A stretch of 52,332 bases of DNA from Bacilli bacterium (GCA_016296285.1 JAEDJP010000001.1:1-52332), one strand, 5' to 3'. Positions 5,832 to 51,388 are shown, counted from the first letter of the stretch. A program made the numbers and translations. Notes: generated from the letters alone by a model not told the origin.

Positions 5832-7550
5832 ATGGAGACCAAGAATCGTCAAGACGCTTTGAGCCAAATCAAACACAAGAAAAAAGAAGACCGCATTCGC
5901 CAAAAGGCAATCGCGGAACAGCGCGAGCGCGTCTATAACGATATGGTCGCCTACGAGAAGAAACATCGCCGGGAACGCAAGATCGCCCCGAAGGATTCTT
6001 TCATCTCCTTGCAACACATCAACAAGATCTACGATAACCGCGTCCAGGCCGTCTTCGATTTCAACCTCGAGATCAAGCAGCACGAATTCATCGTCTTCGT
6101 CGGCCCTTCCGGCTGCGGCAAGTCGACCACCCTCCGCATGATCGCCGGCCTTGAAAACATCACCGCCGGCGACCTCTACATCGATCGCGTCTATGCTAAC
6201 GACCTCGAGCCAAAGAACCGCGACATCGCGATGGTCTTCCAGTCTTACGCCCTCTATCCCCATAAAAGTGTCGCGGGCAATATGTCCTTCGGCCTCAAGA
6301 TTCGGAAATTCCCGACCAAGGTTCTCGATAAAGAAGGCAAGCCCGTCCTCGCGATCAACAAAGGCTTGATCCGCGACTTGACCAAGGAACGCAAAAACCT
6401 GGCCCTCTTCCGGGAAGACTGCCTCGCGACGAACCCCGAACGGATCCCGCAAATCGACAAGGACCTCGCGGAACTCGACGAGAAGATCGCCTATCTTCAG
6501 GTCACTCCCGTCCAGAAATACGCGATGAAGCATCTCCCGAAAGAAGAGATCGCCTCCCGCGTTCTTTCCGCCGCCGAAATTCTTCAGATCACGGAATACC
6601 TCGACCGCAAGCCCAAAGCCCTCTCGGGTGGCCAATGCCAACGCGTCGCTCTTGGCCGCGCCATCGTCCGCAACGCGAAAGTCTTCCTCATGGACGAGCC
6701 GCTTTCGAACCTTGACGCCAAACTCCGCGTCCAGATGCGCTCGGAGATCATCAAACTCCACAATCGCCTCAACGCCACGACGATCTATGTCACCCATGAC
6801 CAGACGGAAGCCATGACGATGGCCACCCGCATCGTCGTCATGAACAAGGGCTACATTCAACAAATCGGCACCCCTGTCGAGATTTACAATCACCCCGCGA
6901 ACCTCTTTGTCGCGACCTTCATCGGCTCCCCGGCGATGAACCTTTTCCCCTCCACCTTCAAAAACGGGTCCGCCGTGTTCGAGGATGGTCTCGCCATGAA
7001 ACTCGAGGAAGGGTCCGAGGCCAAGGTGCAGGCATTCTATGAAAACGAGCTCGCCTCGTATCAAAAGGAAAAAGAGACGCTTCTTGCAGAGTTCAAGGAG
7101 CGGAACCTCCTCCTCGAGAAGCTGGAGCATCTCCGTTCGCTCCCCGCTTCCTCGAAGACGGATCACGAAATCAAGGAAACCGAATTCGAAATCGAGCAGG
7201 TCACCCGCTCCAACGAACGTCTTTCTTTCCTTGAGGACGCCATCGTCAAATACCAGGAATTCCTCGCGAAGAAAGAATTCGACATCGTCTTCGGCATCCG
7301 GCCGGAGGATATCTACGAAGAAGGAAAGGCCTATACGGATGGAATGTTGAGCGACCCGATCGCCGGCGTCGTGACCGTCCCCGAACTCCTTGGCCACGAA
7401 TATTTTGTCCACATCAATTTCGAGAACCGCGATTTGGTTGCAAAAATCGCGGCGAAACGTTTAATTAATGCGGAGGAAAACATCAACGTCGTGCTCGACC
7501 TCACGCGGGCCCATCTCTTCGATGCCGTCTCCTCCAAGATCATCGAATAA
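5832..7550 (+). CDS. MsmX/MalK/UgpC-type sugar ABC transporter ATPase, enlarged (N-terminal extension plus two insertions)
   Basis: Walker [11 protein letters not shown]-loop [10 protein letters not shown], signature LSGGQCQR, Walker [14 protein letters not shown]-loop YVTHDQ, then the MalK-type C-terminal domain ([10 protein letters not shown] ... FGIRPEDI). GGGAGA lies 6 nt before the ATG at 5832. An alternative GTG start is at 5811. Confidence 0.9.
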
Positions 7551-7553
7551 TTC

Positions 7554-8933
7554 ATGGACAAACTGGGCAATCAATACGTATCGTCCTACCGCAACGAAGG
7601 ATACCTTCCCGTTTCCAAGCGCCTGACCGCCGGATTCGTGGATGTCATGCTTCTCATCATCCTTTCGTTTGGCCTCATGATCGCTTCCTCAGAAATCGCG
7701 ATGGCGGTTCCTTCCTATTCCGAGAAGATCGAGACGATCAATGCTTCCCGCGTTGCCCTTTACGAGTTGCAAGAAGAGACGCTCCTCTATGAGTATCCCG
7801 TCGACCAAGAAGGGAACAAGGATTATTCGACCCCCATTTCCCAAAACAAGGTCTTCGAGAAATATTGCTACGAAAACATCCTATACACCTATTCGCTTTG
7901 CAAAGACGAATGGGATCTCGCCTATACCCTTGGGAACGATGACCCAACCGCCGAAGCGAAACTCGCCGCTTATTCCCCGACGAGTTACGACACGGACCGC
8001 CTTGCCTATTTCTACGTGACTTACGCGAGTGCCCATAACGAAAACGGGAACCTTTTCGCCTTGCAGCAAGGAGAAACCTACATCTCCCATTTCAAGACGA
8101 TTTTGCGCAACGCCTCCGCCGGGGCGGAATGGGATTATTTTGACGGGGATGACCGTTTGCCCGCGCTTTCGATGGCGTTTGCCCATCGCCTTTATCGTTA
8201 TCTCGTCTTCTCCGAAGGCGGCCAGGACGGGCTGAACGCCTACAACTTCCTGATCACCCAATACCAAACCCTTTTCGATGACGCGGGCCAGATTCTTTAT
8301 CGAAGCGACGCCTATCAAGCCCTTTACCAAACCTATTTCTCCGCTTATGGGGAATGTTCGCGCGTCGTTTCCCTTTTCTCGTTCCTTTCCTATGTCGCTT
8401 CGTTCTTGCTTTTGATTCTCTTGCCCTCCCTCCTGTTCAAAAACGGGGAGACCCTTGGCCTGTTCCTTCGCAAGGGCACCCTCTTGCACCAAGATCGTCT
8501 CGAGGTTTCCAAAGGTCAGGTCCTCTTGCGTGACCTTGCCTCGTTTTTCACGTCGTTCCCGACGCTCCTTGTTTCCTGCTATTTCGCCGGCGGCTTCAAT
8601 TCCGGGTGGATGTATCCCCTCTTTTCGATCGGCGGGGCAGGCGTTTCCCTTTTCAACCTCACCCTCATCAGCTTGATTTTCCCCATCGTGAATCTCGCGA
8701 TGGCTTTGATCCGCAAGGACAAGCGCGGCTTCACCGAACTCTTGAGCAACACGATTCTCATCGACCGTTCCTATTACGTCGATCATCGCCTTGAAGCAGA
8801 AGATGAGAAAGAAAAAGAAGAAGAAGCGAAAACCCCGACCCCCGTCTCCGCGGAAGTCCCGTATTTCGATTCATCTTGCTTTGAAAACACGGAACGGCCG
8901 AAGCCGTTCGACGATGATTCGGGCTCTCATTGA
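7554..8933 (+). CDS. RDD-family polytopic membrane protein with a large loop between TM1 and TM2
   Basis: RDD-like signature (KRLTAGFVDVML ... KNGETLGLFLRKGTLL ... D). About 230 aa separate the first TM from the TM cluster. Homologous along its whole length to the ORF at 50126-51388. It starts 4 nt after the ATPase stop. Confidence 0.6.
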   Translation: MDKLGNQYVSSYRNEGYLPVSKRLTAGFVDVMLLIILSFGLMIASSEIAMAVPSYSEKIETINASRVALYELQEETLLYEYPVDQEGNKDYSTPISQNKVFEKYCYENILYTYSLCKDEWDLAYTLGNDDPTAEAKLAAYSPTSYDTDRLAYFYVTYASAHNENGNLFALQQGETYISHFKTILRNASAGAEWDYFDGDDRLPALSMAFAHRLYRYLVFSEGGQDGLNAYNFLITQYQTLFDDAGQILYRSDAYQALYQTYFSAYGECSRVVSLFSFLSYVASFLLLILLPSLLFKNGETLGLFLRKGTLLHQDRLEVSKGQVLLRDLASFFTSFPTLLVSCYFAGGFNSGWMYPLFSIGGAGVSLFNLTLISLIFPIVNLAMALIRKDKRGFTELLSNTILIDRSYYVDHRLEAEDEKEKEEEAKTPTPVSAEVPYFDSSCFENTERPKPFDDDSGSH

Positions 8934-9787: not shown

Positions 9788-9832
9788 AAAAAACCTCCTG
9801 AATGGCTTCCGCTTTCATTTAAGCACTCAATA

Positions 9833-9847
9833 TCAAAAAAGTATATA
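9833..9847 (+). promoter_or_regulatory. 15-nt element TCAAAAAAGTATATA (copy 2), in the AraC/permease divergent intergenic region
   Basis: Exact repeat of 5742-5756, located 48 nt upstream of the permease start codon. Confidence 0.5.
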
Positions 9848-9894
9848 TCTACGGTGAAAATGTTTATTCTTTTGGAGGGAACCGCCTTTCTATA

Positions 9895-10887: not shown

Positions 10888-10892
10888 GGATT

Positions 10893-11750: not shown

Positions 11751-11762
11751 GAGGTTTCGAGA

Positions 11763-24909: not shown

Positions 24910-25494
24910 TTAGATCCTGCCTTTCGTCGCCGCGTCGACGAGGTCGAATTTGCCTAGCGTTCTCGCGTATGTGAAGAGCTTTTCCTTATCGATGTTTTTG
25001 GTTTTCGCCTCATCGAGGATGCTCGCGTATTCCTCGTCGAGGAAGCGGTCGCGATAAAGGATGAGGTCAACGATCGTCATCTCGATGTCATAGACGGGGA
25101 CAAGAGGGCCGTGCGGGGAGACCGCGAGGGATTGGCCAAGCAAATAACGGTCGGCGCCTTTCCGAAGGGCGTCCGCCCCTTCGATGCCCGCGGTCATGTA
25201 GTTTCGCGGCAAGGCGACCTCGAGAACCGGCTCGACGTGGAAGCCATGGAGATAGAGGGCGCTGCGAAGACAGAAGACCGCCTTTCGATAACGGAAGTGC
25301 AGGATGAAAAACGGGTCGATGGGGTACCCTTTTTTGATGTAGAGGCCTTTCGCCGCCTTCTGAAAAATGCCGGCTTCCTCCCCTTCGGAAAGATAGGTTT
25401 GGGCAATTCCCATACCCTTGGCCTCGGCCACTGAGACATACCCGTCATTCCAGTCCGCTAGGTCGAGCAATTTTTCAATGGATTTCTTTTTCAC
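24910..25494 (-). CDS. AbiEi/AbiGi-family antitoxin-like wHTH protein (orphan; no AbiEii partner)
   Basis: The roughly 194-aa C-terminal part of track ORF 24910-26031, starting at the GTG at 25494. The pattern is typical of AbiEi_4 proteins (DGYVSVAEAKGMGIAQTYLS..., KGLYIKKG, FILHFRYRKAVFCLRSALYLHGF, VYDIEMTIVDLI). The upstream part of the track ORF is antisense to rplM. Confidence 0.65.
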   Translation of the reverse strand: MKKKSIEKLLDLADWNDGYVSVAEAKGMGIAQTYLSEGEEAGIFQKAAKGLYIKKGYPIDPFFILHFRYRKAVFCLRSALYLHGFHVEPVLEVALPRNYMTAGIEGADALRKGADRYLLGQSLAVSPHGPLVPVYDIEMTIVDLILYRDRFLDEEYASILDEAKTKNIDKEKLFTYARTLGKFDLVDAATKGRI

Positions 25495-25548
25495 GCAACA
25501 ATAATAACAAAACGTTGTTTCAATGAAAACAAAAGAAGGAAAAATGCT

Positions 25549-25577
25549 TTGACAACGTAAGTTCCTCTTTCCATAAT
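25549..25577 (+). promoter_or_regulatory. sigma-70-type promoter of rplM-rpsI
   Basis: TTGACA (25549-25554), a 17-nt spacer, then CATAAT (25572-25577). The roughly 50-nt leader contains a short hairpin (CGTTTC-caaaa-GAAAC) and AAAGGA before the ATG. It could correspond to a ribosomal-protein L13 leader, but this was not verified. Confidence 0.7.
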
Positions 25578-25632
25578 ACCCCCGGCGTTTCCAAAAGAAA
25601 CACGTCAAAAATCGAAAAGAAAGGACAATCCT

Positions 25633-26076
25633 ATGCAGCGTCAAACCACGTTGGCCACCAACGAAAATGCCGTCCACAATTGGTACGTCGTTGATGCCAC
25701 CAACATCCCCCTTGGCCGCCTTGCTTCCAAGATCGCGGTCATCCTCATGGGCAAAGACAAGCCCACCTACACCCCGAACATCGATTGCGGTGACAATGTC
25801 GTCGTCATCAATGCCTCGAAGGTGAAGCTCACCGGCAACCACCCCGAGACCAAGAAGAACTACTACAACGTCTCTGGCTACAACGGTGGCCTCCGCACCC
25901 GTTCCTCCGGCGTCATGCTCAACGAATTCCCCGTCGAGATGATCGAGCGTGCCGTTTGGGGCATGCTTCCCAAGGGACGTCTCGGCCGCAAGATCGCGAG
26001 CAAGCTCCACGTCTATAGCGGCGCCGAGCACGAACAGGCGGCCCAGAAGCCGGTCGTCCTCGATCTCAGCAAATAA
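25633..26076 (+). CDS. rplM: 50S ribosomal protein L13
   Basis: 147 aa. NWYVVDATNIPLGRLASKIAVILMGKDKPTYTP is classic L13. Confidence 0.97.
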   Translation: MQRQTTLATNENAVHNWYVVDATNIPLGRLASKIAVILMGKDKPTYTPNIDCGDNVVVINASKVKLTGNHPETKKNYYNVSGYNGGLRTRSSGVMLNEFPVEMIERAVWGMLPKGRLGRKIASKLHVYSGAEHEQAAQKPVVLDLSK

Positions 26077-32655: not shown

Positions 32656-33987
32656 TCAGAAAAGCGGGGCGTCAAGAAGTGTCTCGTTCTTCAAGAAATC
32701 GAACAGACCTATGCGGACCACGCCATCCTCGTCGCTGGAAATTCCATCGGTGAATTTGCTGACGATGATTTTCGTGAATCCATCGCCGATTCTCCGGAAA
32801 GCTGCCTTTTCTTGGGAGAGCTTGGCCGCATCCGGAATCCAGTAAGCGGATTGGATGTAAAAGCGTCTCCCGTGGGTCTCCACCACGAAGTCCACTTCCC
32901 GATTCACGCGTGTTTGTCTGCCGTTCACCATTTCGTTGGTGCTGATGACCCCTACGTTGACCTGATAGCCCCTAGCTTGCAACTCGTTGTAGATTGCGTT
33001 CTCCATGAAGTGCGGTTCCTGGTCCATGCCTTTGAATCCGGCGGCCGCGCTCCTGAGCCCAAGGTCCTGAAAATAGTATTTCGCCGTTCCACCGATCGTC
33101 TCTTTTCCCTTCAAGTCGTAGCGCTGCGCTTTGGACACGAGGAAGGCATCCTCAAGATAATCGAAATATTTGCGGACCGTGTCGGGCGAAATGTGCGAAT
33201 TCTCTTTTGAGCGGAAAGTATTTGCAAGCTTGTTTGCGCTGATTAGGGAGCCCACCGATGTGGAAAGGAAAGAAGTGACTTCCTCCAGAGAATGCTCATT
33301 CCTTAAAGCGTGTCGGTCCGCGACGTCACGGATGTAGGTGGTGAGGAAGACATCTTTAAGATATGCCCTTTTCTCTTTCTCGGTGGCGAGCAAAGCACAT
33401 CCTGGCAGCCCTCCCCATCGGTAAAAAGAGTTCCAAAGGTTAAAATCGTTCACTGAAGTCGGCGTCGCTTCTCTTAGCTCACCGAAGCTGAGCGGATGCA
33501 TGTGGATTTGCCATCCCCTCCCTCGGAATTCGGTCGCAATGTCACTGGAGAGCATGTGAGAGTTGCTGCCGGTCACGTAGACGTCAACATTCCTGTATGA
33601 GGAAAGAAGCCCGTTCAAGACGCTGTAGAAGGTGATCGTAGGCTTTTTGCCGCTCACCGTTTGGACGCCTTCAAAATAGGGACTCTCAATGCTCTCGCAG
33701 AGCTGTATCTCGTCAATGAAAAGGAAGGCCTGCCCTTCTCTCGGAAGGATGGAGCGGACTTTCTTCCCCAGGGAAATGGGATTATGTAGTTCCTCATTCC
33801 TATCATCCGAAAGGTCAAGCATGAATATCCTGTCTTTCGGAATTCCGTGAGCCAATAGGTATTCGGTAAATATCGGGTTGAGGAGATAGGATTTCCCGGA
33901 TCTCCTTGGCCCGGTGATAACCTTAATCATCCCATTACCGATGGACGAAACGAGTTTCTGCAGGTATTTTGGCCTTTCGAATTGCAT
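32656..33987 (-). CDS. AAA+ ATPase of the AAA_14/DUF4143 family (islet 1)
   Basis: Walker A GPRRSGKSYLL, Walker B FLFIDEIQ, family-typical C-terminus (REVDFVVETHGRRFYIQSAYWI...QEKAAFRRIGDGFTKIIVS). GGAGG lies 6 nt upstream of the ATG. Paralog of 34649-35968. Confidence 0.8.
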   Translation of the reverse strand: MQFERPKYLQKLVSSIGNGMIKVITGPRRSGKSYLLNPIFTEYLLAHGIPKDRIFMLDLSDDRNEELHNPISLGKKVRSILPREGQAFLFIDEIQLCESIESPYFEGVQTVSGKKPTITFYSVLNGLLSSYRNVDVYVTGSNSHMLSSDIATEFRGRGWQIHMHPLSFGELREATPTSVNDFNLWNSFYRWGGLPGCALLATEKEKRAYLKDVFLTTYIRDVADRHALRNEHSLEEVTSFLSTSVGSLISANKLANTFRSKENSHISPDTVRKYFDYLEDAFLVSKAQRYDLKGKETIGGTAKYYFQDLGLRSAAAGFKGMDQEPHFMENAIYNELQARGYQVNVGVISTNEMVNGRQTRVNREVDFVVETHGRRFYIQSAYWIPDAAKLSQEKAAFRRIGDGFTKIIVSKFTDGISSDEDGVVRIGLFDFLKNETLLDAPLF

Positions 33988-34475: not shown

Positions 34476-34516
34476 GACGGTCTCTCCTTCCTGGAAAGGA
34501 AGTGCGGAGACCGTTT
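34476..34516 (+). terminator. terminator hairpin homologous to the one after the intact tRNA-Leu
   Basis: ACGGTCTCTCCTTCC - tgga - AAGGAAGTGCGGAGACCGT followed by TTTT. It shares GGAAAGGAAGTGCGGAG(G/A)CCGTTTT with 32198-32224. Confidence 0.55.
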
Positions 34517-34648
34517 TCGTTTATCCACCAAGCGGAAAAGGATTTTATTTTCCAATTCAATCAAACGGAGATACTCTGGGGCGAAGGGCAAAGATATAAT
34601 ATATTTACAAATATTTCAAAAATTGAATTTTTTGTCACGAGGCATGCT

Positions 34649-35968
34649 ATGGAAATCAAGAGAGATTATTATCTGGAGCGGCTCATCCGTTCCCGCAACA
34701 ACGGGGCCATCAAGGTCATCGCCGGCATAAGGCGGTGTGGAAAGAGCTATCTTCTTGACCCGCTTTTCCGCTTTTGGCTCCTCAATCAGGGTATCCCTTC
34801 GGAAAGAATCATCAAAATCGACCTTTCCGAAGGGAGGAATCAGGCGCTGGCCAACCCTCTAAGTCTCTCGAATTACCTGGAGGGAATTCTTCCCAAAGAC
34901 GGTCCCTGCTACCTCTTCCTTGACGAGATTCAGCACTGCGAGGCCATCGAAAGCCCCTATTTTGATGACGTCAAAACCGCCAGCGGAAAAAAGCCCCTGA
35001 TCACCTTCTACACTGTACTGAACGGGATTCTGTCTTCCCACAAGAACGTCGACTGCTATGTGACGGGAAGCAATTCGAGGATGCTTTCCAGCGACATCCT
35101 TACGGATTTCCGCGGCCGGGGCTTTGAAATCCGGATGAGCCCTCTCTCATTCTCCGAGTACCTATCGGCGAGGAATGGGGCGGATCGGGGACAAGTCTTC
35201 CGGGATTACCTCCGCTACGGAGGGATGCCTTTCTCCCTGACCTACGATGACCCCGGTGACAGGGAGGAGTACCTCCGTTCCCTGTTCGGCACCGTCTACT
35301 ACAAGGACATCGTCGAGAGGTACAGGCTGCAGGAAAACTCTTCCCTAAACGAGCTCACGAAGGTAATGGCCTCATCCGTCGGGTCATTGATCAACACCAG
35401 CCGCATCGCGGACACGTTCCGTTCCACCGAGGGCAAAGGAATCGCCAGGAACACGATCGAAGGTTACCTCGGTTATCTCAAAGACGCTTTTCTCTTAGAA
35501 GAAGCGGAGAGGTACGACATACGAGGACGGAAAATTATCGGAAGCGGAAAGAAGTACTATTTTGCAGATACAGGGCTCCGAAACGCACTTCTCAATTTCC
35601 GCCAGCCCGACCGCGGCCATTTGATGGAGAACGCAATCTACAACGAGCTCATACGGCTCGGTTATGGAGTCGATGTCGGAGTTATCCGCTCCTATGACCC
35701 CACCGCACCCAAATCCAACGCCTCCCCACAGCTCGAGGTCGACTTCGTCGCGGAGAAGGGGGATGCCCGCTACTACATCCAGTCCGCCTTCTCGGTTGAT
35801 GACGAATCAAAGATGGCTCAAGAGAAACGTCCGCTTTTGGCCGTGAGGGACTCCTTCCGCAAGATCCTGATCGAAGGTGACGACTTCGAGCCGTATCAGG
35901 ACGACGACGGAGTGGTTCATGTCGGAGCCATCGATTTCCTCCTGAATGCTCCTTCTGTTCTGAGATGA
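34649..35968 (+). CDS. AAA+ ATPase of the AAA_14/DUF4143 family (islet 2)
   Basis: Walker A GIRRCGKSYLL, Walker B YLFLDEIQ, C-terminus LEVDFVAEKGDARYYIQSAFSV...QEKRPLLAVRDSFRKILIE. GAGG lies 6 nt upstream of the ATG at 34649. The track ORF from 34502 is an upstream extension. Confidence 0.8.
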   Translation: MEIKRDYYLERLIRSRNNGAIKVIAGIRRCGKSYLLDPLFRFWLLNQGIPSERIIKIDLSEGRNQALANPLSLSNYLEGILPKDGPCYLFLDEIQHCEAIESPYFDDVKTASGKKPLITFYTVLNGILSSHKNVDCYVTGSNSRMLSSDILTDFRGRGFEIRMSPLSFSEYLSARNGADRGQVFRDYLRYGGMPFSLTYDDPGDREEYLRSLFGTVYYKDIVERYRLQENSSLNELTKVMASSVGSLINTSRIADTFRSTEGKGIARNTIEGYLGYLKDAFLLEEAERYDIRGRKIIGSGKKYYFADTGLRNALLNFRQPDRGHLMENAIYNELIRLGYGVDVGVIRSYDPTAPKSNASPQLEVDFVAEKGDARYYIQSAFSVDDESKMAQEKRPLLAVRDSFRKILIEGDDFEPYQDDDGVVHVGAIDFLLNAPSVLR

Positions 35969-42738: not shown

Positions 42739-43899
42739 TTAGAGGAATCTAGGGCCCTTTTGGGGCTCATCCATATGCGGATCATAGGAAGGCTTCTTCG
42801 TATTTACATAGGGGAATCCCTTGTCGTCCCAAAGAATCTTATCCATCATTAAGTGACGGGTTGCAAAATTGTCCTTGCGGGTATAGGCGTGATAGTAGAT
42901 CCAATAATCACCCGCATCATCCTTGATGATGGAGTTGTGACCAGGACCATAGACATCGCTGTCATCGAGAGGACCTCCCCAAACAACGACGTTACCATAG
43001 GTCGTGCCACTACGAGACATGGTGAGCTTCATGCCTTTGCTATCGATGAAAGGACCGTTGACGCTGTTGGAGATGCCAGCCATGACGCGGTAAGTGGAAT
43101 CGGTGCCGGCACAACAGGTACCGGTGGAACCGAAAAAGACATACTTGCCATTGTGCTCGAGGACATAGCTACCTTCGTACTGGGAACCATCCCAGTCAGT
43201 AGGAGCGCCTGCCACAAGAATCTTATTTTCCTTCCAATAGTCGATGTCGTCGCCCTTAAGGCCGATGCCATCATCATTGAGCTGAACCTGATAGAGACCC
43301 TGGAAAGAACCGAATGTCATCCAAACTTCACCATCGGAAGTCTGAATGACCTGAGGGTCAATGGCGTTTTCAACATCGATTTCCTTATAGGAGAAGAGTT
43401 TGCCTTGATCGACATAGGGACCGCCGATGTTGTCGGCGATACCATAACCGATACCGACGCAATCTCCCCAGCCGGAAAGGGAATAGTAGTAAATCCACTT
43501 GTTACCGATCTTGACGACATCCGGAGCCCACATATAGATCTGACTCGGATTGATGGCCATGCCAGGTTCTTTGTGCCAGGTCGGGAAGTTGATGATTTCA
43601 CCGCCAACCTGAGTCCAGGTGCAGCCGTCATCACTCTTCAAAGTGATTCGATTGGTGGCAAAGCACCAGAGTTCACCGGATTCGGGGTCTCTCACGACCG
43701 TTGGGTCAGCAACTTCACCGCTGAAGGGAGAACCGGTAGTCGTCATTGCCATGAGCGGGTTGGAGAACTCGCCATAGTAATATCCCGGTTCATCGGAAGA
43801 TTCTTCGGAAGCATTGGGTGTTTGATTCGAAGGAGGAGTCGTGTTACCGCAGGAAATCAACAAGGCGACGAACGCGAATCCTAATAATGATTTCTTCAT
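42739..43899 (-). CDS. GH43 glycoside hydrolase lipoprotein (extracellular)
   Basis: Start at MKKSLLGFAFVALLISCGN (lipobox L-I-S-C), with AGGAGC 5 nt upstream. GH43 motifs: VADPTVVRD, MWAPDVVKIG, IDPQVIQTSDGEVW, and YEGSYVLEHNG. The track start at 43944 overlaps the upstream gene. Confidence 0.8.
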   Translation of the reverse strand: MKKSLLGFAFVALLISCGNTTPPSNQTPNASEESSDEPGYYYGEFSNPLMAMTTTGSPFSGEVADPTVVRDPESGELWCFATNRITLKSDDGCTWTQVGGEIINFPTWHKEPGMAINPSQIYMWAPDVVKIGNKWIYYYSLSGWGDCVGIGYGIADNIGGPYVDQGKLFSYKEIDVENAIDPQVIQTSDGEVWMTFGSFQGLYQVQLNDDGIGLKGDDIDYWKENKILVAGAPTDWDGSQYEGSYVLEHNGKYVFFGSTGTCCAGTDSTYRVMAGISNSVNGPFIDSKGMKLTMSRSGTTYGNVVVWGGPLDDSDVYGPGHNSIIKDDAGDYWIYYHAYTRKDNFATRHLMMDKILWDDKGFPYVNTKKPSYDPHMDEPQKGPRFL

Positions 43900-43909
43900 G
43901 AACGGCTCC

Positions 43910-46186
43910 TTACTTGGCCAAAGACCAAGAGGCGATGGTATCACCGGAGTTTACGTCAAAGGCTAGAACCTTATCCAACTCACAACTAAGCTCAATATCT
44001 TCGTGAGCCTTGACCAACGTTCCGGTGGAGATCTTGGCAATCATATCAACGTTGTTGTAATTGGCATGGACGAGAAGTTCGCTGCCAAGCAATTCAACGA
44101 CATCACTGTTGACCGTGAAACCACTGGACTTCTTATCGGAATTGAATTCACGGGCAAGGTGGATGTGCTCCGGACGGATGCCGATGCGGACATCGTGTTT
44201 GCCCTGCAAGGCAGCCTCATACTTTCTTTCTAGTTCGGTCAAGACCAACCAAAGGTTGTTGGTGAGAACGACATTGGAATCCTTGACGTGGATGGAAGAC
44301 TTATAGCCTTTGACGGCAGCTTTGGCCTTGCCATGTCTCTTGGTGTAGAAGAGAACCGTTTCCTTTTCGGACTTCTTGCCCTTGGAGAAGGCCGTGGTGT
44401 TGTGAAGGATGGACAGTTCCTTGGTCGTGATATCCATGATGTTGAGAAGGAGCGGTTTGGCAGCCTTGAGTCTTTCTTCCAAGGAACGTTCTTTCTGTCC
44501 ATCCGTAGCAGGAGCAAAGCAGGCAACCAAGGCATCGCGATCCTTGTCATCGATGGTTTCGATGACCGCTTTGAGTTCTTCGACCTTGGCGTTGATTTGT
44601 TCTTCCATCATGGCCTTGATTTCGCCATGGATTTCATCCAAAGACTTGGAGCCTTCCTCCTTGACGAGAGCATGAACCTTCTTTTCGCCCTCCGTAAGCG
44701 GAACGAGCTTTTCTTCGCCTTGGCCTTTGCTAAGAGCCGCCCGGAGACGATCGGAATAGTGGAGGAGATTTCTTTCCTCGGCCAGGAGGCGAAGAATCTC
44801 GTCGTGGAGGAACAAGCCATGCATCTTCTTGACCGGATTCTTGGCTAAGAAGCCTCGGGTCTCTTCCAATTTCTGGTTGTAGAAGGCATCGTGAGTCGTC
44901 TTGAATTCTGCCCCCATATCCATGACGAAACCATCGTCTAAGGTCAACTTGCCGTCTTCATAAGTGCCTTCGAAGATATTCATGGCAGGAGAGCCAATGA
45001 AGGTAGCGACGAAGATGTTGTTCGGACGGGAGTAGATGACTTCCGGTTCCCCAATCTGCTGGCACCAGCCCTTGGACATGACGGCAATACGGGTTGCCAT
45101 GGTCATCGCTTCGGTCTGGTCGTGCGTGACGTAAATGGTGGTCGCCCCGATTCGCTCGTGCAATCGGACGATTTCGGAACGCATCTGAACTCTCAACTTG
45201 GCGTCGAGGTTGGACAAAGGCTCATCCATTAAGAAGACCTTGGCGTTTCTGACAATGGCTCTTCCTAAGGCGACACGCTGCATCTGACCACCGGAGAGTT
45301 CTTTCGGGCGTCTGTCGAGGTAAGGGCCAAGGTCCAAAATCTTGGCCGCTTCGAAGACCTTCTGACGGATCTCTTCCTTGGTGAGTTTGACCTTCTGATG
45401 AAGGGGTTTTTCGCCCTGATAGACAACGCCATCTTTCTTGATGGTGAAGCCCTTGGATTCATAGTTCTGCTTTTCCGCAGCAATCATGCTGTCCAAAGTA
45501 GCGTCGATCTCCTCTTTCTTGGAATCGAACAATGTCTTGAATTCAAGCTGATACTGGGCAAGATTATCCGAATCACCGAAAGCTTTTCTGGCTAAGGCAA
45601 GCAAATCTTTGTATGACAAGATGAGCTTGGCAGTGATTTCCTGGATCTTGAGCTTGGTGGAAACATAGACGGCCAAAGAAGCGTAATTGAGTTTCTTGTC
45701 CAAGGATTCGATCATGCCTTCCAGCAACCGCTCAGGCTGTTCCTTGACCGCATCGAATTCCATTTTGGCCTGCATGGAGAGGACTTTGACGATCTTATCG
45801 TACTTGCGGGCTTTGAGCGGGAACGCGATGTTATCGTAGACCGTCATCTGCGGATACAAAGCGTAGGACTGGAAAACCATGGAAATATCACGGTCCTTGG
45901 GAGGAATGTAGTTGGAGAGGACTTTATCGATGTGGAGATAACCGGAGGAAATATCTTCCAAACCGGCGATCATTCTAAGGGTCGTGGACTTGCCGCAGCC
46001 AGAAGGACCGACCAAGACGATGAACTCATGCTGCTTGATATCGATGTTGAAATCGTAGACGGCCTGAATGCCGTTGGGATAAATCTTATTGACGTCTTTG
46101 AGACAGACGAAGGATTGAATGGATTCGTTGCGGATAATACCGCCATTCTTCTTCAGTTCTTCTTTGAGATTCACATTTTCTTCCAT
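43910..46186 (-). CDS. MsmX/MalK/UgpC-type sugar ABC transporter ATPase, greatly enlarged (758 aa)
   Basis: Walker [11 protein letters not shown]-loop [10 protein letters not shown], signature LSGGQMQR, Walker [14 protein letters not shown]-loop YVTHDQ, and MalK C-domain ends ([10 protein letters not shown] ... IGIRPEHIHL). It has K/E-rich insertions of about 140 aa and about 240 aa. AGGAGG lies upstream of the start. Confidence 0.9.
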   Translation of the reverse strand: MEENVNLKEELKKNGGIIRNESIQSFVCLKDVNKIYPNGIQAVYDFNIDIKQHEFIVLVGPSGCGKSTTLRMIAGLEDISSGYLHIDKVLSNYIPPKDRDISMVFQSYALYPQMTVYDNIAFPLKARKYDKIVKVLSMQAKMEFDAVKEQPERLLEGMIESLDKKLNYASLAVYVSTKLKIQEITAKLILSYKDLLALARKAFGDSDNLAQYQLEFKTLFDSKKEEIDATLDSMIAAEKQNYESKGFTIKKDGVVYQGEKPLHQKVKLTKEEIRQKVFEAAKILDLGPYLDRRPKELSGGQMQRVALGRAIVRNAKVFLMDEPLSNLDAKLRVQMRSEIVRLHERIGATTIYVTHDQTEAMTMATRIAVMSKGWCQQIGEPEVIYSRPNNIFVATFIGSPAMNIFEGTYEDGKLTLDDGFVMDMGAEFKTTHDAFYNQKLEETRGFLAKNPVKKMHGLFLHDEILRLLAEERNLLHYSDRLRAALSKGQGEEKLVPLTEGEKKVHALVKEEGSKSLDEIHGEIKAMMEEQINAKVEELKAVIETIDDKDRDALVACFAPATDGQKERSLEERLKAAKPLLLNIMDITTKELSILHNTTAFSKGKKSEKETVLFYTKRHGKAKAAVKGYKSSIHVKDSNVVLTNNLWLVLTELERKYEAALQGKHDVRIGIRPEHIHLAREFNSDKKSSGFTVNSDVVELLGSELLVHANYNNVDMIAKISTGTLVKAHEDIELSCELDKVLAFDVNSGDTIASWSLAK

Positions 46187-46235: not shown

Positions 46236-47186
46236 TCATCTCTTGATACCGGCAGAAGCCATACCTTCGATGATCTTGTTGGAAGCGAGGATGTAAGCGA
46301 CAAGGACCGGAGCTAAGCAGATGACACCACCGGCAAGAGCGGTACCGATCAAGTCCGATGTTCTGGAGTTGTTGATGACGTAAGCCATGCCGACCTGCAG
46401 AGTCCAAAGCTTGTTGTCTTTGACGCCGAATAACATCTGCGGCCAGACCAAGTCGTTCCATCCGCCCATGAAGCCGAATAAGCCCTGAACGAAGAGAACG
46501 GTCTTACCTAACGGAAGGACGATGCGGAAGAAGATCTCAAGGTTGGAGTAGCCATCCATTTTGGCAGATTCCACCAAGTCTTTCGGAATCGACATGAAGA
46601 AGGTCTTGATGAGGTACATGCCATAGACGCCACCTAAGCCAGGGAGAATGAGTGCCAATAGTGACTTATTAAGACCCCAGGAGAAGATGTTCATCTGGTT
46701 ACCGACAGCGGTAGCCGTTCCAGGAATAACCATGGAAGCGACCAAGATACCGAATAAGACCTTGGATCCACGGACCGGCATGAAGGTGAAGCAGTAAGCG
46801 GCAAGAGAGGCGACAAGGAGGTAAAGAAGGGTGCCGCCGATGGCAGAGATGCAGGAGTTCATGAACCAATAGCCCATGTGGTATTCCTGAGTCGAGTTAT
46901 GGGAGCCCATCATATCTTCCGGATATTGCTGCAAGAGAAGAATCTTATAGTTTTCGAGGGTATAACCGGAATGCGGATAGAAGATCTCCTTCGGATAGTT
47001 CATGTTGTCCAAATGGCCTCTTAAGGAGCCCAAGAACATGATGAAGAAGGGGAGAACCCAGATGATGCAGAAGATCGTGAGGAAGATGAAGGTGATGATT
47101 TTGCCATACTGAATCTTGGTGTGACGATTCTGGTTTGCCTTACGGTAACCGACATAACGTTCAAGCGTTAATTGATTCTTGCCCAT
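46236..47186 (-). CDS. carbohydrate ABC transporter permease (MalG-like)
   Basis: 316-aa polytopic protein with the EAA loop ESAKMDGYSNLEIFFRIVLP. Confidence 0.85.
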   Translation of the reverse strand: MGKNQLTLERYVGYRKANQNRHTKIQYGKIITFIFLTIFCIIWVLPFFIMFLGSLRGHLDNMNYPKEIFYPHSGYTLENYKILLLQQYPEDMMGSHNSTQEYHMGYWFMNSCISAIGGTLLYLLVASLAAYCFTFMPVRGSKVLFGILVASMVIPGTATAVGNQMNIFSWGLNKSLLALILPGLGGVYGMYLIKTFFMSIPKDLVESAKMDGYSNLEIFFRIVLPLGKTVLFVQGLFGFMGGWNDLVWPQMLFGVKDNKLWTLQVGMAYVINNSRTSDLIGTALAGGVICLAPVLVAYILASNKIIEGMASAGIKR

Positions 47187-48259
47187 TTTGCGTATGCCTC
47201 CGAATTTCTGTTACCGGGTTTTCGATCTCTAGTAGCCCACATCTGGATACCGGAGATGATACCGACAAGGATTGCATAGACGATACTGGCAGCAGCGCCT
47301 AAGCCGTACAAGGTATCCTTGAAGGTAGGCCTGTTGGCGACAATATCCTGAATGAAGTACATGATGGTAGAAGTCTTGCCGCCACCAGGCATGGAAGAGA
47401 GGGCCGGAATGACCGGGCCGCCATTGGACAAAACGTAGTTCTGACCATACAAGCCTAAGTAACCGATGATGGTGGTGAACAAACATAAGACGAGCTGTCC
47501 TTTGATACCAGGGATGGTGACAGCCATGACTCTCTTCATCGGAGAGGCGCCATCGATATCGCTGGCTTCATATAAGGACTTGGGAATGTTCTGGAGACCG
47601 GCGGAGAGAATGATGAAGTTTCCACCCCAACCACCCCAGAAGCACATGAGGAAGATCGGAATCCAAGCCAGGGCGACATCGCCGTTGAAATTTCCGATTG
47701 TGAATTTGAACCAAGAGTCTACGAACCATTTGATGTCCGTACCGAGTATTTCGTTGAGCAGACCGTGTTGAGACCGATCCAAGAAGAGCATGGAGAAGAT
47801 CGTGCCGGCAGCGGTAAGCGGAACGATGGACGGCATGTAAATCAAGGCGCGGAAGATCTTATATCCCGGCGGCTTGATGTTAACTAAAATGGCTAATCCA
47901 AGAGGAACCAAAACGGCAAGAGGGACCATGATGAGAGCGAAGATAAAAGAGTGCATGAAAGATCGCCAAAATGCGGCACTGGCATTGGTTGCCGCTTTGG
48001 AAAGCTTGTCACCAACGCTCTGCGGGGCAAAGATGAACTTATACCACTGAGCGCCATTGTAGGAGGCAGTACCCGGAGAGGAGAACTTGAAGTTCATGAA
48101 GGAAATCCGAACGCCGTAAATCAAAGGTACGATGAAGAAAAGGATAAAACTAAGAATAAACGGCGCTAAAAAAAGCAGCGCCGTTCCGTATCTTTTGAAT
48201 TCGGTTTTTGTCCTGGAGCTCCGGAGTGCATATTTTTCCAAGGTATTCATTTTATCCAT
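47168..48259 (-). CDS. carbohydrate ABC transporter permease (MalF-like)
   Basis: Polytopic protein with the EAA loop EASDIDGASPMKRVMAVTIP. The ATG at 48259 has AAGGAG 9 nt upstream. The track TTG at 48265 is 2 codons longer. The gene overlaps the downstream permease by 19 nt. Confidence 0.85.
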   Translation of the reverse strand: MDKMNTLEKYALRSSRTKTEFKRYGTALLFLAPFILSFILFFIVPLIYGVRISFMNFKFSSPGTASYNGAQWYKFIFAPQSVGDKLSKAATNASAAFWRSFMHSFIFALIMVPLAVLVPLGLAILVNIKPPGYKIFRALIYMPSIVPLTAAGTIFSMLFLDRSQHGLLNEILGTDIKWFVDSWFKFTIGNFNGDVALAWIPIFLMCFWGGWGGNFIILSAGLQNIPKSLYEASDIDGASPMKRVMAVTIPGIKGQLVLCLFTTIIGYLGLYGQNYVLSNGGPVIPALSSMPGGGKTSTIMYFIQDIVANRPTFKDTLYGLGAAASIVYAILVGIISGIQMWATRDRKPGNRNSEAYAKWARIN

Positions 48260-48306
48260 CGGCAAACACTCCTTTTGTTAAGAATCAAACGTAAACCCAA
48301 GTCCGA

Positions 48307-49941
48307 TTAATCGAAGATGTGAGCCATATCGATGGCTTCCTGGGCAGACTGAGCGGTCTCAGCAATGATCCGGAGAGCACGTTCCTTGCTGCAGCCTTCG
48401 GAAGACTTCAAAGCTTCGTGAGTGGCGAAGACGGCAGTAGAGAGAGCGTTGAAGATCAAGGTTTCGTCCCTAAGGCTTTCCATAGCCATGATGTCAGCGG
48501 GATCGCCTAAAGCCTTAAGGGTGACGTTCTTTTCGCAATATCTCTTATATTCTTCGGATTCATAGACATTCTTCCAAGCCGGGATATGGCCGGAATTGTT
48601 CCACTCGGCGAGGTTGTATTCGCCAGTGCTCGCGTCCTTGCCCTGAACGAACCAGTTGGTGAAGGAGAGAATGGCGGCGACCTTCTGCATGGAATCAACG
48701 TGTCTCGTGATGGAGACGGCGTGACCGTTACCATACCACTTTCTTCGGGTGGCTTCCGGAGCATCGTCCAAAGACCACCAACCATCCGCGTGAGCAGCGG
48801 CGAACGGCTTGGAGATGACCGGATCAGCGGCATCTTCGGCAGAGACGTTCAACTCCGCGTTGGCAGCAGTGAGTTCCGGTAAGTTCCAAGCCAAGGAATA
48901 CTGAGAGGAAGCCCACCACGGACCTTCATTGAACATGACGCAGGAACCATTGCCGAAACCTTCGGTGTTGGTACCGCACTTATCGCCCATCAAACCGTTG
49001 TTGTATCTCTCGACCTGATCGGTGACATAGGTCCTAAAACCTTCGTTGTCCTGGAAGGTAACCTTGATGTCGCCGTTTTCATCCTTGACGGCCATGGAAC
49101 CGCCGTTGGCGTATAAGGAAGAAAGGCCGTCCGGATCGGTAGACTGCATGAATTCAGGAACGAAGGTAGAAACATCGGCCGGTTTCCAGGAGTGGTCTTC
49201 CGCCTTGTTGATGTTACGGACCATAAGAGTGCCGGCTTTGGCCTTTTCAAGAAGTTTTTCAAGCAAGGTCTGATATTCGGCTCTGGAGTTCGGGATGAAA
49301 CGGGTATTGTCATCGAAGCCGAGTCCATTCTTTTTGATGATATCCTGACGGAAGTAGGTCAAGAAGCCATGAGCATCCATCGGGATGGCGAACTGATGGC
49401 CAGCGTACTGGGAGGCTCTGTTGATGTTGTCATAAGCCTGGGAGAAGTCCATGCTGACACCGGTAGGATCACCTAAGAGCTTATCGATCGGATAGAGCAT
49501 ACCCTGGTCGGCATACTGAGCAGTCTTTTCGTTATGCATGACAAGGAAGTCCGGCATGCCTTCCTTCTCGTTCTGCCAAGTCGTATCCAAGTTACCGTAG
49601 AAGTCATAGTGACCGACATAGGTAACATCGATGTGAATCTGGCCTAAGAATTCATCATTGAACTTCTGGATGAGTTTGACGTAGGTCTGCTTATCGGGGT
49701 CACCGATAACGCACCAAGCCTTCAAATTGATTTGTTCATTGAATTCGGGGGCGCCGTTTTCGTCCTTGACGACATCGTCAGCCAAAGTGGAGATATCAAG
49801 AATCGGATCGGAATCATCAACGATCTGAGTGCCGGAATTACCACCGGAAGCGTCTTCGTTACCGCCACCGCAGCTTACTAACGAAAGCAAAGCGGTGAAG
49901 ACAAGGCTGGATCGAATGATCAGCTTTTTTCTAGTTAACAT
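48307..49941 (-). CDS. extracellular solute-binding lipoprotein of the locus-B ABC transporter
   Basis: Lipobox S-L-V-S-C-GGGN. A 544-aa family-1-like SBP positioned upstream of the permeases. GGGAGG lies upstream of the start. Confidence 0.8.
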   Translation of the reverse strand: MLTRKKLIIRSSLVFTALLSLVSCGGGNEDASGGNSGTQIVDDSDPILDISTLADDVVKDENGAPEFNEQINLKAWCVIGDPDKQTYVKLIQKFNDEFLGQIHIDVTYVGHYDFYGNLDTTWQNEKEGMPDFLVMHNEKTAQYADQGMLYPIDKLLGDPTGVSMDFSQAYDNINRASQYAGHQFAIPMDAHGFLTYFRQDIIKKNGLGFDDNTRFIPNSRAEYQTLLEKLLEKAKAGTLMVRNINKAEDHSWKPADVSTFVPEFMQSTDPDGLSSLYANGGSMAVKDENGDIKVTFQDNEGFRTYVTDQVERYNNGLMGDKCGTNTEGFGNGSCVMFNEGPWWASSQYSLAWNLPELTAANAELNVSAEDAADPVISKPFAAAHADGWWSLDDAPEATRRKWYGNGHAVSITRHVDSMQKVAAILSFTNWFVQGKDASTGEYNLAEWNNSGHIPAWKNVYESEEYKRYCEKNVTLKALGDPADIMAMESLRDETLIFNALSTAVFATHEALKSSEGCSKERALRIIAETAQSAQEAIDMAHIFD

Positions 49942-50125: not shown

Positions 50126-51388
50126 TTACTTTTTGGACTGCTCCGTATCCGGGATGAGACCAATCGATTTTTCATCCATCACCTTTGTTTTAAAAGACAT
50201 TTCAAGCAAGGTCTGCGCTTGAGCGGTAAATAGGGTGGAAATGGAGTTGATGACAGTCAGGATGAATGCGCCGATCAAGATGACGGCAAGGGAGACGTTT
50301 CCGATAAAGGGAAGCATCATTCCATCGAACACCCCATTGAAAGGAGGCATCATGTAGGCAACCGTGATTCCGGCAAGATAGGGGATGAACAGAAGGAGAG
50401 AATGGACGAAGGTAAGATACCATTTTGGCTCTTCGTCTTCGGTGGTGATGACGCCAAGTCCGAGGATGAGCTTACCGAGAGTTCTTTCATTGCGGAAGAG
50501 GAACTTCGGAAGAAGATTCAGAAATAGATAGGAGAGGAAAAAGGAAAGAATCAAGGCGATGTTAAGACATTTGGCTTGAGCCCCGATAGCCTCACGATAC
50601 GCAAGATAATGGGTGGAGTAGTAGGGTTCGTTCTGGATCAGGGAGTTTTCGGCATCGGTCAGCATCGTGGAATAGGCGTTGTAGAAATTGTTGAAGTAAG
50701 CCTTGCCGGTTTCATAGATAGCGTTCATCTCTTCGGCCGTGTTATCGGTCATATAGCAGAAGAGTGCTCTAGAAACATCGGTATGAAGGGCAGGGAGCTC
50801 GGTGGGATGACCGTTTTCGTCCATCAAAACCGCATCGAAGCGGAACATACCCGCGGGGAAGGAAGACTGGTAGAGAGAATTGACATAAGCGAGGGGCGTC
50901 GAGGTAAAACTGAGAATGGGAGTGCCGGAAACTTCGGCTTCCTGAGGAACGTAGACGGTGTAGAAGTGAGCGATCGAGTCGTTTTCCGGAGAAGCCTTTC
51001 CATATCTTGTCGTTTCACTGCCGTCTTCGATGACAAAGTCAGGATACTGGGCGTTACCGAACTTCTCATAGGACCATAGGATGGCTCTGTTGATGTTTTC
51101 GATAACGATGATTTCATCGGACTTTCTGGTGGTTTTCTCTTCATCGACGAAGGAAACCAATCCGGAAGCTTCCGCATAATGGTTGTAATAGACAATCTCC
51201 TCTTCCACTTTGGCCGTTGCCTGCTGATAGGAGGCAGTCCCCCTGGCTATCGGAGCAGCCCCAAGGAAGAGAAGACTCGCACCAACTAAGACAATGGAAA
51301 AATCGATGAAGAAAGACGCAAAACGCTTCCCCGGCTTTACCGGGAAAGCGTTGCTGAGATCATAGGTATGTTCTTTGAATAATCCCAT
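50126..51388 (-). CDS. RDD-family polytopic membrane protein with a large loop (paralog of 7554-8933)
   Basis: KRFASFFIDFSIVLV ... RNERTLGKLILGLGVIT RDD-type pattern, with a loop of about 250 aa after TM1. Colinear similarity to 7554-8933: AHFYTVYVP versus AYFYVTYAS, LPALHTDVSRALFCYM versus LPALSMAFAHRLYRYL, and a conserved TM2 region. Confidence 0.6.
   Translation of the reverse strand: MGLFKEHTYDLSNAFPVKPGKRFASFFIDFSIVLVGASLLFLGAAPIARGTASYQQATAKVEEEIVYYNHYAEASGLVSFVDEEKTTRKSDEIIVIENINRAILWSYEKFGNAQYPDFVIEDGSETTRYGKASPENDSIAHFYTVYVPQEAEVSGTPILSFTSTPLAYVNSLYQSSFPAGMFRFDAVLMDENGHPTELPALHTDVSRALFCYMTDNTAEEMNAIYETGKAYFNNFYNAYSTMLTDAENSLIQNEPYYSTHYLAYREAIGAQAKCLNIALILSFFLSYLFLNLLPKFLFRNERTLGKLILGLGVITTEDEEPKWYLTFVHSLLLFIPYLAGITVAYMMPPFNGVFDGMMLPFIGNVSLAVILIGAFILTVINSISTLFTAQAQTLLEMSFKTKVMDEKSIGLIPDTEQSKK

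Follow-up and report, generated by a model that had tools for sequence, protein, structure and literature searches.

Why should the ATPase of a sugar importer be about twice as long as its best solved relative, and what could the added sequence do? The question is raised by a gene in a 52,332-nucleotide (nt) stretch of DNA from a Bacilli bacterium (GCA_016296285.1, JAEDJP010000001.1:1-52332; hereafter the window), which encodes, at 43910..46186 on the minus strand, a 758-amino-acid (aa) ATP-binding cassette (ABC) ATPase of the MalK/MsmX type. Such ATPases are the textbook model of how ABC importers are powered and regulated. We find that the canonical nucleotide-binding and regulatory domains of this protein are intact and that they are interrupted by two orphan modules predicted to be folded, ~370 residues together, at what appear to be the surfaces where regulation acts in Escherichia coli. 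The base class is known; what is new is a sizeable family within it, so far unstudied, of MsmX-type ATPases with two inserts, which belongs to gut Bacilli predicted to be wall-less and is persistently linked to RDD-family membrane proteins. Its hosts are abundant but uncultured, and in their genomes of ~1 Mb little dispensable sequence is expected.

A canonical importer ATPase interrupted at two sites

All catalytic motifs are present and in order, namely Walker A (GPSGCGKS, aa 60-67), the Q-loop (VFQ, aa 104-106), the signature (LSGGQ, aa 297-301), Walker B with its catalytic Glu (VFLMDEP, aa 317-323), the D-loop (SNLD, aa 325-328), and the H-loop (THD, aa 354-356). Pfam matches ABC_tran at 101 bits and OB_MalK at 34.3 bits against a cut-off of 27, and the C-terminal OB/TOBE regulatory domain is present but split by the second insert. 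The motifs, Pfam, and the alignment described below agree with the intact MalK/MsmX-type core described in the initial annotation. The best NCBIfam matches are the UgpC and MalK models, and the protein misses both thresholds (UgpC NF008653, 413.2 versus 432; MalK equivalog NF008233, 331 versus 568), the UgpC shortfall arising because the match is broken by the inserts into three separate stretches. By its motifs, domains, and operon context we place it in the broader MalK/MsmX/UgpC family and claim neither UgpC nor MalK identity.

The best solved relative is Bacillus subtilis MsmX (PDB 6yir, E 1.5e-102), which, like the MalK/SugC/UgpC-type CUT1 subunits in general, shares with the 758-aa protein the catalytic motifs and the C-terminal OB/TOBE domain. 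It aligns in three blocks.

MsmX alignment block 1: query aa 30-131 = MsmX 7-108
MsmX alignment block 2: query aa 267-418 = MsmX 105-256
MsmX alignment block 3: query aa 662-744 = MsmX 276-357

This arrangement leaves an insert 1 of ~135 aa (~aa 131-266) and an insert 2 of ~237 aa (~aa 419/425-661). The alignment fixes the boundaries of two insertions that had been placed, before any structural comparison, at nt 45383-45802 and 44198-44914 (aa 129-268 and 425-663); both exist, and the earlier ranges were right to within a few residues. The third addition relative to MsmX is an N-terminal extension, which is family-wide, has a nearly invariant N20, and measures ~24 aa here and ~55 aa in a paralog in the same window. 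The parts of the gene, in the order of the protein, are as follows.

43910..46186, minus strand: 758-aa MsmX/MalK/UgpC-type ABC importer ATPase gene; single open frame, stop codon 43910-43912
46115..46186, minus strand: N-terminal extension, aa 1-24, without counterpart in MalK and MsmX; the MsmX alignment starts at aa 27-30
45797..46114, minus strand: nucleotide-binding domain part 1, aa 25-130, with Walker A, Q-loop, and first helical-subdomain helix
45389..45796, minus strand: insert 1, aa 131-266, predicted to be a helical module whose base consists of a beta-strand and a hairpin; boundaries from the MsmX alignment
44972..45388, minus strand: nucleotide-binding domain part 2, aa 267-405, with LSGGQ, Walker B, D-loop, and H-loop
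44915..44971, minus strand: first strands of the regulatory (OB/TOBE) domain, aa 406-424; OB_MalK match aa 398-426, MsmX alignment to residue 256
44204..44914, minus strand: insert 2, aa 425-661, with a conserved helical base, a variable helical arm, and a lysine-rich disordered loop (predicted)
44480-44791, minus strand: variable helical arm of insert 2, aa 466-569, from conservation and AlphaFold
44264-44386, minus strand: lysine-rich disordered loop of insert 2, aa 601-641, from AlphaFold; 11 K+R versus 3 D+E in 41 aa
43913..44203, minus strand: remainder of the regulatory domain, aa 662-758, beginning VRIGIRPEH and aligning to MsmX 276-357

Gene context agrees with this assignment. By Pfam, the operon runs RDD, 544-aa binding protein, permease, permease, ATPase, GH43, GH43, SASA esterase, GH43. 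The ATPase is thus accompanied by two BPD_transp_1 permeases and an extracellular binding protein, with synteny in at least 17 loci, which marks it as the predicted energizing ATPase of a binding-protein-dependent (CUT1-type) importer.

Evidence that the inserts belong to a genuine protein comes from its relatives. A 762-aa gene, 94% identical and with the same neighbors, is present in two independent metagenome assemblies, and comparison with it gives ratios of nonsynonymous to synonymous substitution (dN/dS) of 0.054 in the core as opposed to 0.17 and 0.21 in inserts 1 and 2, arguing that the inserts are translated and constrained, less strongly than the core. Their GC content, overall and at third codon positions (GC3), equals that of the core. 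The 120 best homologs in a set of 5.8 billion proteins are 579-871 aa long, and most align over 97-100% of the query with identities of 46-60%. These comparisons indicate that both inserts are kept by purifying selection across a large family. The initial annotation had named assembly artefacts and frameshift read-throughs as what would refute it. An assembly chimera, a frameshift read-through, an intein, or a mobile insertion, in whose favor only the unusual length speaks, deserve next to no credence, since the frame is uninterrupted behind a good ribosome-binding site (AGGAGG, 9 nt 5' of the ATG), the same architecture recurs in independent assemblies and in >100 cluster representatives, and the inserts are under purifying selection with the composition of the core. 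An intein or other mobile insertion was also rejected as a candidate in its own right, the inserts being helical rather than of the Hint fold and lacking intein boundary residues, as was recent foreign acquisition, given the architecture in independent assemblies, the selection, and the core-like composition.

Predicted fold, conservation, and distribution of the inserts

AlphaFold2, run with 83 homologs, models both inserts as mainly helical, with helices of 29-39 residues and high confidence. Conservation is uneven along the family: the base of each insert is conserved, whereas its centre is variable and rich in indels. Differences in length fall at the tips of the inserts, and the lengths range over 54-375 aa at site 1 and 48-324 aa at site 2. 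The bases carry invariant or nearly invariant polar and aromatic residues (Y174, H432, Y436, H456, H595, N596, Y614, N643, and N644), and the models present the inserts as folded modules with candidate binding sites, more than spacers. The description of the inserts as K/E-rich is confirmed, with K at 14.7% and E at 8.8% in insert 1 and 12.3% and 11.5% in insert 2, compared to 7.1% and 6.8% in the core. Heptad analysis found only weak amphipathic periodicity where the sequence had been called heptad-like, and the coiled-coil arms suggested on that basis are compatible with the long modelled helices of the variable centres but not with the conserved polar and aromatic bases or the disordered lysine-rich loop.

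Within insert 1, block-mean predicted local distance difference test (pLDDT) scores are 81-94, mostly >86, with several short helices and one 39-residue helix (aa 206-244) falling within aa 136-244 and a hairpin at aa 254-267. A motif, LNY..YVSTKL, and the C-terminal hairpin are conserved, while the tip, ~aa 181-220, varies in length; in the family alignment Y174 is invariant, and Y174, T177, E238, and G246 are at least 90% conserved. In three homologs of 870-871 aa (P0042, P0046, and P0053) the tip carries one strongly hydrophobic, transmembrane-like segment with a Kyte-Doolittle value of 2.7-2.9, for example ILLVAVLGIIYLIFVLFNL (2.9), which suggests, from sequence, that the tip lies at the membrane. 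In the alignment of P0042 a second, weaker hydrophobic stretch precedes that segment. Listed together with these three is 7881-10496 of locus L004. In an 895-aa homolog (L008, 7899-10586), hidden Markov model (HMM) matches place the module in tandem, as two full copies and a partial third, and the much longer insert 1 of P0249 (901 aa) looks duplicated by eye.

The helical nature and position of insert 1 invite comparison with other ABC proteins that carry helical arms between the Q-loop and the signature motif: Rad50 and SMC with their coiled coils, EttA and the remaining ABC-F proteins with their arm, and UvrA with its insertion domains. Insert 1, largely helical, sits at the same topological position (Q-loop to LSGGQ) as the Rad50, SMC, and ABC-F arms. 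Unlike Rad50 and SMC, it has neither hinge nor zinc hook and forms a short arm of ~40 residues per helix, and the protein has a single nucleotide-binding domain and is encoded in a transporter operon. Membership in the SMC/Rad50 type was rejected, with Pfam SMC_N at 19.5 bits against a cut-off of 40.

Insert 2 is marked by the motifs HDxFY, KKMHGL, LHNxxxFSK, LFYxKR, and NNLY. Four of its residues (H432, Y436, L594, and Y614) are invariant, and so is H664, which lies immediately beyond the C-terminal boundary, while K454, M455, H456, D462, H595, N596, F600, N643, N644, and Y646 are nearly invariant. Its folded parts have block-mean pLDDT values of ~75-94, and modelled in isolation it reaches a pLDDT of 82.5 and a predicted template-modelling score (pTM) of 0.76.

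Relatives of either insert were found within this ATPase family only. Against 1.84 billion representative proteins, the insert-2 HMM retrieved 11 sequences, all members or fragments of the family; against the 5.8-billion-protein set, the insert-1 profile retrieved three ABC ATPase fragments, in a search that also missed known family members. Pfam scans of 17-19 sequences per insert at E up to 10 gave scattered single matches, with no family matched by more than two sequences. Foldseek of insert 2 alone against the PDB gave no significant fold match (best E 0.37, template-modelling score <=0.25), its matches being generic helical arms (STAT coiled coil, HlyD, EnvC, and PcsB); Foldseek of the full-length model returned only MalK/MsmX-type chains, at high root-mean-square deviation, a result uninformative on the inserts, and no solved structure among the PDB matches carries the inserts. 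By these searches both inserts are orphan domains, with no relatives detected outside this ATPase family. The initial annotation knew of no described function for them, and we likewise found none in Pfam, the PDB, or the literature searched.

To follow the distribution of the inserts, we scanned one genome per GTDB species with a family-specific N-terminal motif, NKIYPNGxQAVYDFN, recovering at least 528 loci; the motif also retrieves canonical-length relatives, and insert status was measured locus by locus. Both large inserts are present in the best-matching loci L001-L009, L011-L020, L022, and L056, from gut and rumen metagenome-assembled genomes (MAGs) labelled Bacilli, Candidatus Onthovivens, and similar, with 26-48% GC. 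Intermediate states include proteins of 470-514 aa that have insert 2 but not insert 1, the converse form with insert 1 alone (L024, 534 aa), and both inserts in short form (the paralog type described below and L010), pointing to the two loops as recurrent insertion sites in this clade. The rumen MAG of L024 encodes an insert-1-only ATPase of 534 aa and an insert-2-only ATPase of 501 aa (2895-4499 and 7866-9371). The idea that these two form a heterodimer gains no support from the locus, in which glycosidase genes separate them and permeases are absent.

The host can be placed through the paralog, whose closest named relative is annotated Candidatus Enteromonas (78% identity). This genus is GTDB UBA733 (order RFN20, family CAG-826), and its type genome measures 1.2 Mb at 57% GC (PMC8035907); the window has 52% GC. 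RFN20/CAG-826 is predicted to be without peptidoglycan and branches with Mycoplasmatales (PMC10868615). On sequence grounds, the host is most likely an uncultured gut bacterium of this order and family, a lineage predicted to be wall-less. The earlier statement that enlarged UgpC/MalK-like ATPases exist in Mollicutes therefore holds in part, for the predicted wall-less RFN20/CAG-826 kin, but not for Acholeplasma, Anaeroplasma, or Haloplasma, whose sampled loci encode canonical proteins of 365-405 aa; a literature search on enlarged MalK/MsmX proteins in Mollicutes returned nothing relevant. Mpn134 of Mycoplasma pneumoniae and MG187 of M. genitalium are further enlarged MalK-like ATPases, of about 585 aa. 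They belong to a wall-less lineage sister to RFN20, and we compare them to the present family as MalK-like ATPases. A model of Mpn134 has been built on MalK, and the protein carries a phosphate at S392 (PMC3293634).

A second enlarged ATPase is encoded in the same window.

5832..7550, plus strand: paralog of 572 aa, interrupted at both of these sites by shorter inserts (nt 6315-6539 and 7017-7274)

These inserts, of ~75 and ~80 residues, correspond by nt range to aa 162-236 and 396-481. The statement that the paralog is interrupted at the same two places is supported both by alignment and by motif distances in its close homologs L081-L083, in which Q-loop to LSGGQ spans 127-129 aa versus 54 in canonical forms and FIGSP to GIRPE spans 125-128 aa versus ~50. 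The paralog passes the NCBIfam UgpC model (442.8 versus a cut-off of 432), and a separate conserved family of relatives, 513-581 aa long, shares 59-94% identity with it. The core identity between the two ATPases, estimated earlier at about 85%, is considerably lower. It amounts to 61% overall, reaching 67-71% across the nucleotide-binding domain and dropping to 34% within the C-terminal regulatory domain.

That the inserts of the two families are unrelated, as first supposed, is largely but not wholly borne out. The insert-1 profiles show no similarity in hhalign (probability 0.6%), in keeping with that view. For insert 2, by contrast, a 31-column match (probability 85%) covers the start only, a native strand and the beginning of an FY-containing helix, ~seven of its residues belonging to the native strand, and the 758-type insert-1 HMM weakly matches the 575-577-aa ATPases of L021 and L023 (E 3e-6). 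The shared start and this weak match make a common origin of the two families' inserts possible.

Candidate roles of the inserts

Both insertion sites coincide with regions of E. coli MalK implicated in the binding of regulators such as EIIAGlc and MalT. Insert 1 leaves the chain at MalK residues equivalent to G104-K106, and insert 2 replaces the regulatory-domain loop of residues ~262-278. We take K106 to cross-link to the EAA loops, W267, within that loop, to be a MalT-related site, and G278, at its end, to be an EIIAGlc-resistance site, and E119 and A124, just after insert 1, presumably belong to a regulator-binding region; the identities of these residues agree with the MalK sequence used, and a literature search on MalK mutant residues found nothing relevant. 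More generally, the helical subdomain is the most variable region of such ATPases and contacts the EAA loops and coupling helices of the permeases; EIIAGlc binds the nucleotide-binding and regulatory domains of opposite MalK monomers, hinders rotation, and blocks transport by MalFGK2; and MalK controls MalT (PMC6906923). Transporters are commonly regulated through additional domains fused to them (PMC10710835).

With these sites in mind, we tentatively favor the possibility that the inserts are built-in regulatory or partner-docking modules. Insert 1, in the variable helical-subdomain loop beside the coupling-helix cleft, would lie close to the membrane, a position that fits the transmembrane-like tips of some homologs. 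The two inserts would occupy the surfaces that MalK-type ATPases use for control and, by contacting each other across the dimer or by engaging a partner or ligand, could modulate the domain rotation needed for ATPase closure. Sugar uptake would then be controlled post-translationally, in an organism whose genome encodes few regulators. Unlike control by EIIAGlc or MalT, the extra mass here is within the ATPase chain, and its regulatory role is putative; no similarity of the inserts to EIIAGlc or MalT was found by Pfam scans or, for insert 2, by Foldseek. The concept is shared with the trans-inhibition domains of MetN (C2) and ModC, extra cytoplasmic ATPase modules that keep the nucleotide-binding domains apart on ligand binding (PMC10710835). 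Those modules are C-terminal appendages with known folds and ligands, whereas insert 2 is a module within the regulatory domain for which no fold relative was found. If the inserts do gate closure or recruit partners, they would constitute a new, self-contained control of sugar uptake and a tractable target for structure prediction and cryo-electron microscopy.

Several observations weigh against a regulatory or docking role. The partner, the ligand, and the contact between inserts are all putative, and the structure model is of a monomer; the roles assigned to MalK K106, W267, G278, E119, and A124 are presumed. Since insert 1 and insert 2 each occur alone in relatives, an obligatory contact between them is unlikely. 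The central parts of the inserts are poorly conserved, and the inserts evolve 3-4 times faster than the core. Moreover, block-mean pLDDT of the ATPase core in the full-length model (aa 30-110 and 320-400) is 41-75, below that of the inserts, which makes the domain geometry of that model unreliable; the near-invariance of the 83-sequence alignment in this region is the likely cause.

Another explanation is lineage-specific expansion: two permissive surface loops would have tolerated added sequence in a fast-evolving lineage with reduced genomes, and the role of the inserts would be structural at most. We consider this doubtful but worth serious attention. Both sites are surface loops known to vary, the helical subdomain most of all (PMC6906923), and RFN20 and its relatives evolve faster than other Bacilli (PMC10868615). 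The wide range of insert lengths, the poor conservation of the centres (identity 0.06-0.2, with many gaps), and the largely dissimilar inserts of the two paralog families would all be expected of such expansions. Yet dN/dS in the inserts is well under 1, polar His, Asn, and Tyr residues are invariant within them, the predicted folds are confident, and the inserts are kept in genomes of ~1-1.3 Mb, where dispensable sequence is normally lost. If they turn out to be dispensable, the family would nonetheless give a measure of the additional mass that these two ABC-fold loops can accommodate.

A candidate partner is suggested by gene linkage. Among the 18 loci of the 758-aa type with enough upstream DNA, 17 have an RDD gene at the head of the operon, followed by binding protein, permeases, and ATPase and usually then by GH43; in the window and in L081 and L082, an RDD gene directly follows the gene for the 572-aa type, despite different upstream genes. 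Linkage of RDD and MsmX-like genes was seen at both ATPase loci of the window, among L001-L022, and in L081, L082, L026-L028, L032, L036, L037, L043, and L059. The RDD proteins near enlarged ATPases are themselves enlarged (390-459 aa), with a ~220-aa loop between transmembrane helices 1 and 2, whereas small RDD genes (156-331 aa) lie beside canonical or 514-aa ATPases in Acholeplasma and Anaeroplasma loci; the small proteins set against the enlarged ones for size measure 156-213 aa. No paper describing this linkage was found in a literature search, and it offers a first functional lead for a poorly understood membrane-protein family.

On the strength of this linkage, the inserts could be sites at which an accessory membrane subunit, the RDD protein, docks, with insert 1 holding an RDD cytoplasmic loop or tail in a five-component transporter, and the transmembrane-like insert-1 tip of some homologs is in keeping with this. 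We regard the proposal as unlikely. Hydropathy and a positive-inside reading put the extra RDD loop probably outside the cell, leaving only short cytoplasmic segments; canonical ATPases have RDD neighbors too, so that the linkage does not need inserts; L010, L021, L056, and the insert-2-only forms have no RDD gene nearby; and gene linkage is no demonstration of physical contact. A broader reading, in which the enlarged ATPases and linked RDD proteins make up a novel type of CUT1 sugar importer peculiar to these gut Bacilli predicted to be wall-less, would have insert 1, next to the membrane, and insert 2, on the regulatory domain, as a built-in gate that senses a cytoplasmic ligand or the RDD subunit and locks the dimer open, functionally analogous to inducer exclusion by EIIAGlc but encoded in the ATPase itself. 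We offer it as a speculative extension of the regulatory reading, with a low chance of being correct in full.

Far less probable is a moonlighting role in nucleic-acid binding or transcription control, in which a helix-turn-helix-like element of insert 1 (YVSTKL-x3-helix) and the lysine-rich loop of insert 2 would couple transport to expression. A helix at aa 171-179, a three-residue turn, and a helix at aa 183-190 do surround the invariant Y174, the disordered loop has 11 K+R in 41 aa, and the control of MalT by MalK offers an analogy, but none of the 19 sequences of insert 1 matched a helix-turn-helix family in Pfam, even with E values as high as 10 allowed. Moreover, the helix that would serve for recognition is short, lacks basic character, and shows little conservation, and an AraC-type regulator is encoded at 8927-9787, beside the paralog locus.

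The importer operon and neighboring genes

The genes around the 758-aa ATPase and its paralog are listed below.

50126..51388, minus strand: 420-aa RDD-family membrane protein gene, operon head; Pfam RDD (PF06271)
48307..49941, minus strand: 544-aa substrate-binding protein gene; weak SBP_bac_1 match, position conserved, 44-55% identity across loci
46236-47186 and 47168-48265, minus strand: two ABC permease genes; Pfam BPD_transp_1, synteny kept in L001-L022
37286..43899, minus strand: downstream GH43, GH43, SASA-type esterase, and GH43 genes; Pfam
7554..8933, plus strand: 459-aa RDD-family membrane protein gene, starting 4 nt past the stop of the paralog; Pfam RDD
8927-9787, minus strand: AraC-type regulator, divergent, next to the paralog locus
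9895-11750: permease pair without an ATPase of its own, followed by a 582-aa open reading frame (ORF) without Pfam match (set within 8927-13511)

An operon that joins a binding protein and permeases to GH43 arabinan-type hydrolases makes arabinan or arabino-oligosaccharides the likely cargo, and a GH43 gene lies 3' of the ATPase gene in many homologous loci. The arabino-oligosaccharide system AraNPQ-MsmX of B. subtilis is the textbook analogue of this combination of ATPase, binding protein, permeases, and GH43.

As listed, the first GH43 ORF (42739-43944, minus strand) overlaps the ATPase gene by 35 nt; a start at ATG 43899 removes the overlap and is most likely the true one. From that ATG the product begins MKKSLLGFAFVALLISCGN, a lipoprotein signal with an LLISC lipobox, and the hydrolase is probably a surface lipoprotein, judging from this N terminus. 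In L001 a GH2-family glycosidase gene of ~590 aa (6121-7884) lies between the second permease and the ATPase, and a gap of the same size occurs at that place in L002, L004, L005, L008, L019, L020, and L022. The window lacks this gene, with a 49-nt gap between second permease and ATPase.

The paralog, by comparison, stands apart from any permease operon, as does the multitask MsmX. Its RDD gene comes next, then the divergent AraC regulator, the permease pair, and the 582-aa ORF, a putative binding protein that is probably a lipoprotein. The 572-aa ATPase may serve this adjacent permease set, which has no ATPase of its own, and is plausibly a shared, MsmX-like ATPase. Beyond the 582-aa ORF, up to ~28.7 kb, follow beta-helix, Big_2, GH127-like, and rhamnosidase genes. 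The carbohydrate genes of the window are broken up by an AbiEi-like regulator ORF and two AAA_14/DUF4143 ATPase ORFs (24910-26031, minus strand; 32656-33987, minus strand; 34502-35968, plus strand), which may be a mobile or defence-related patch.

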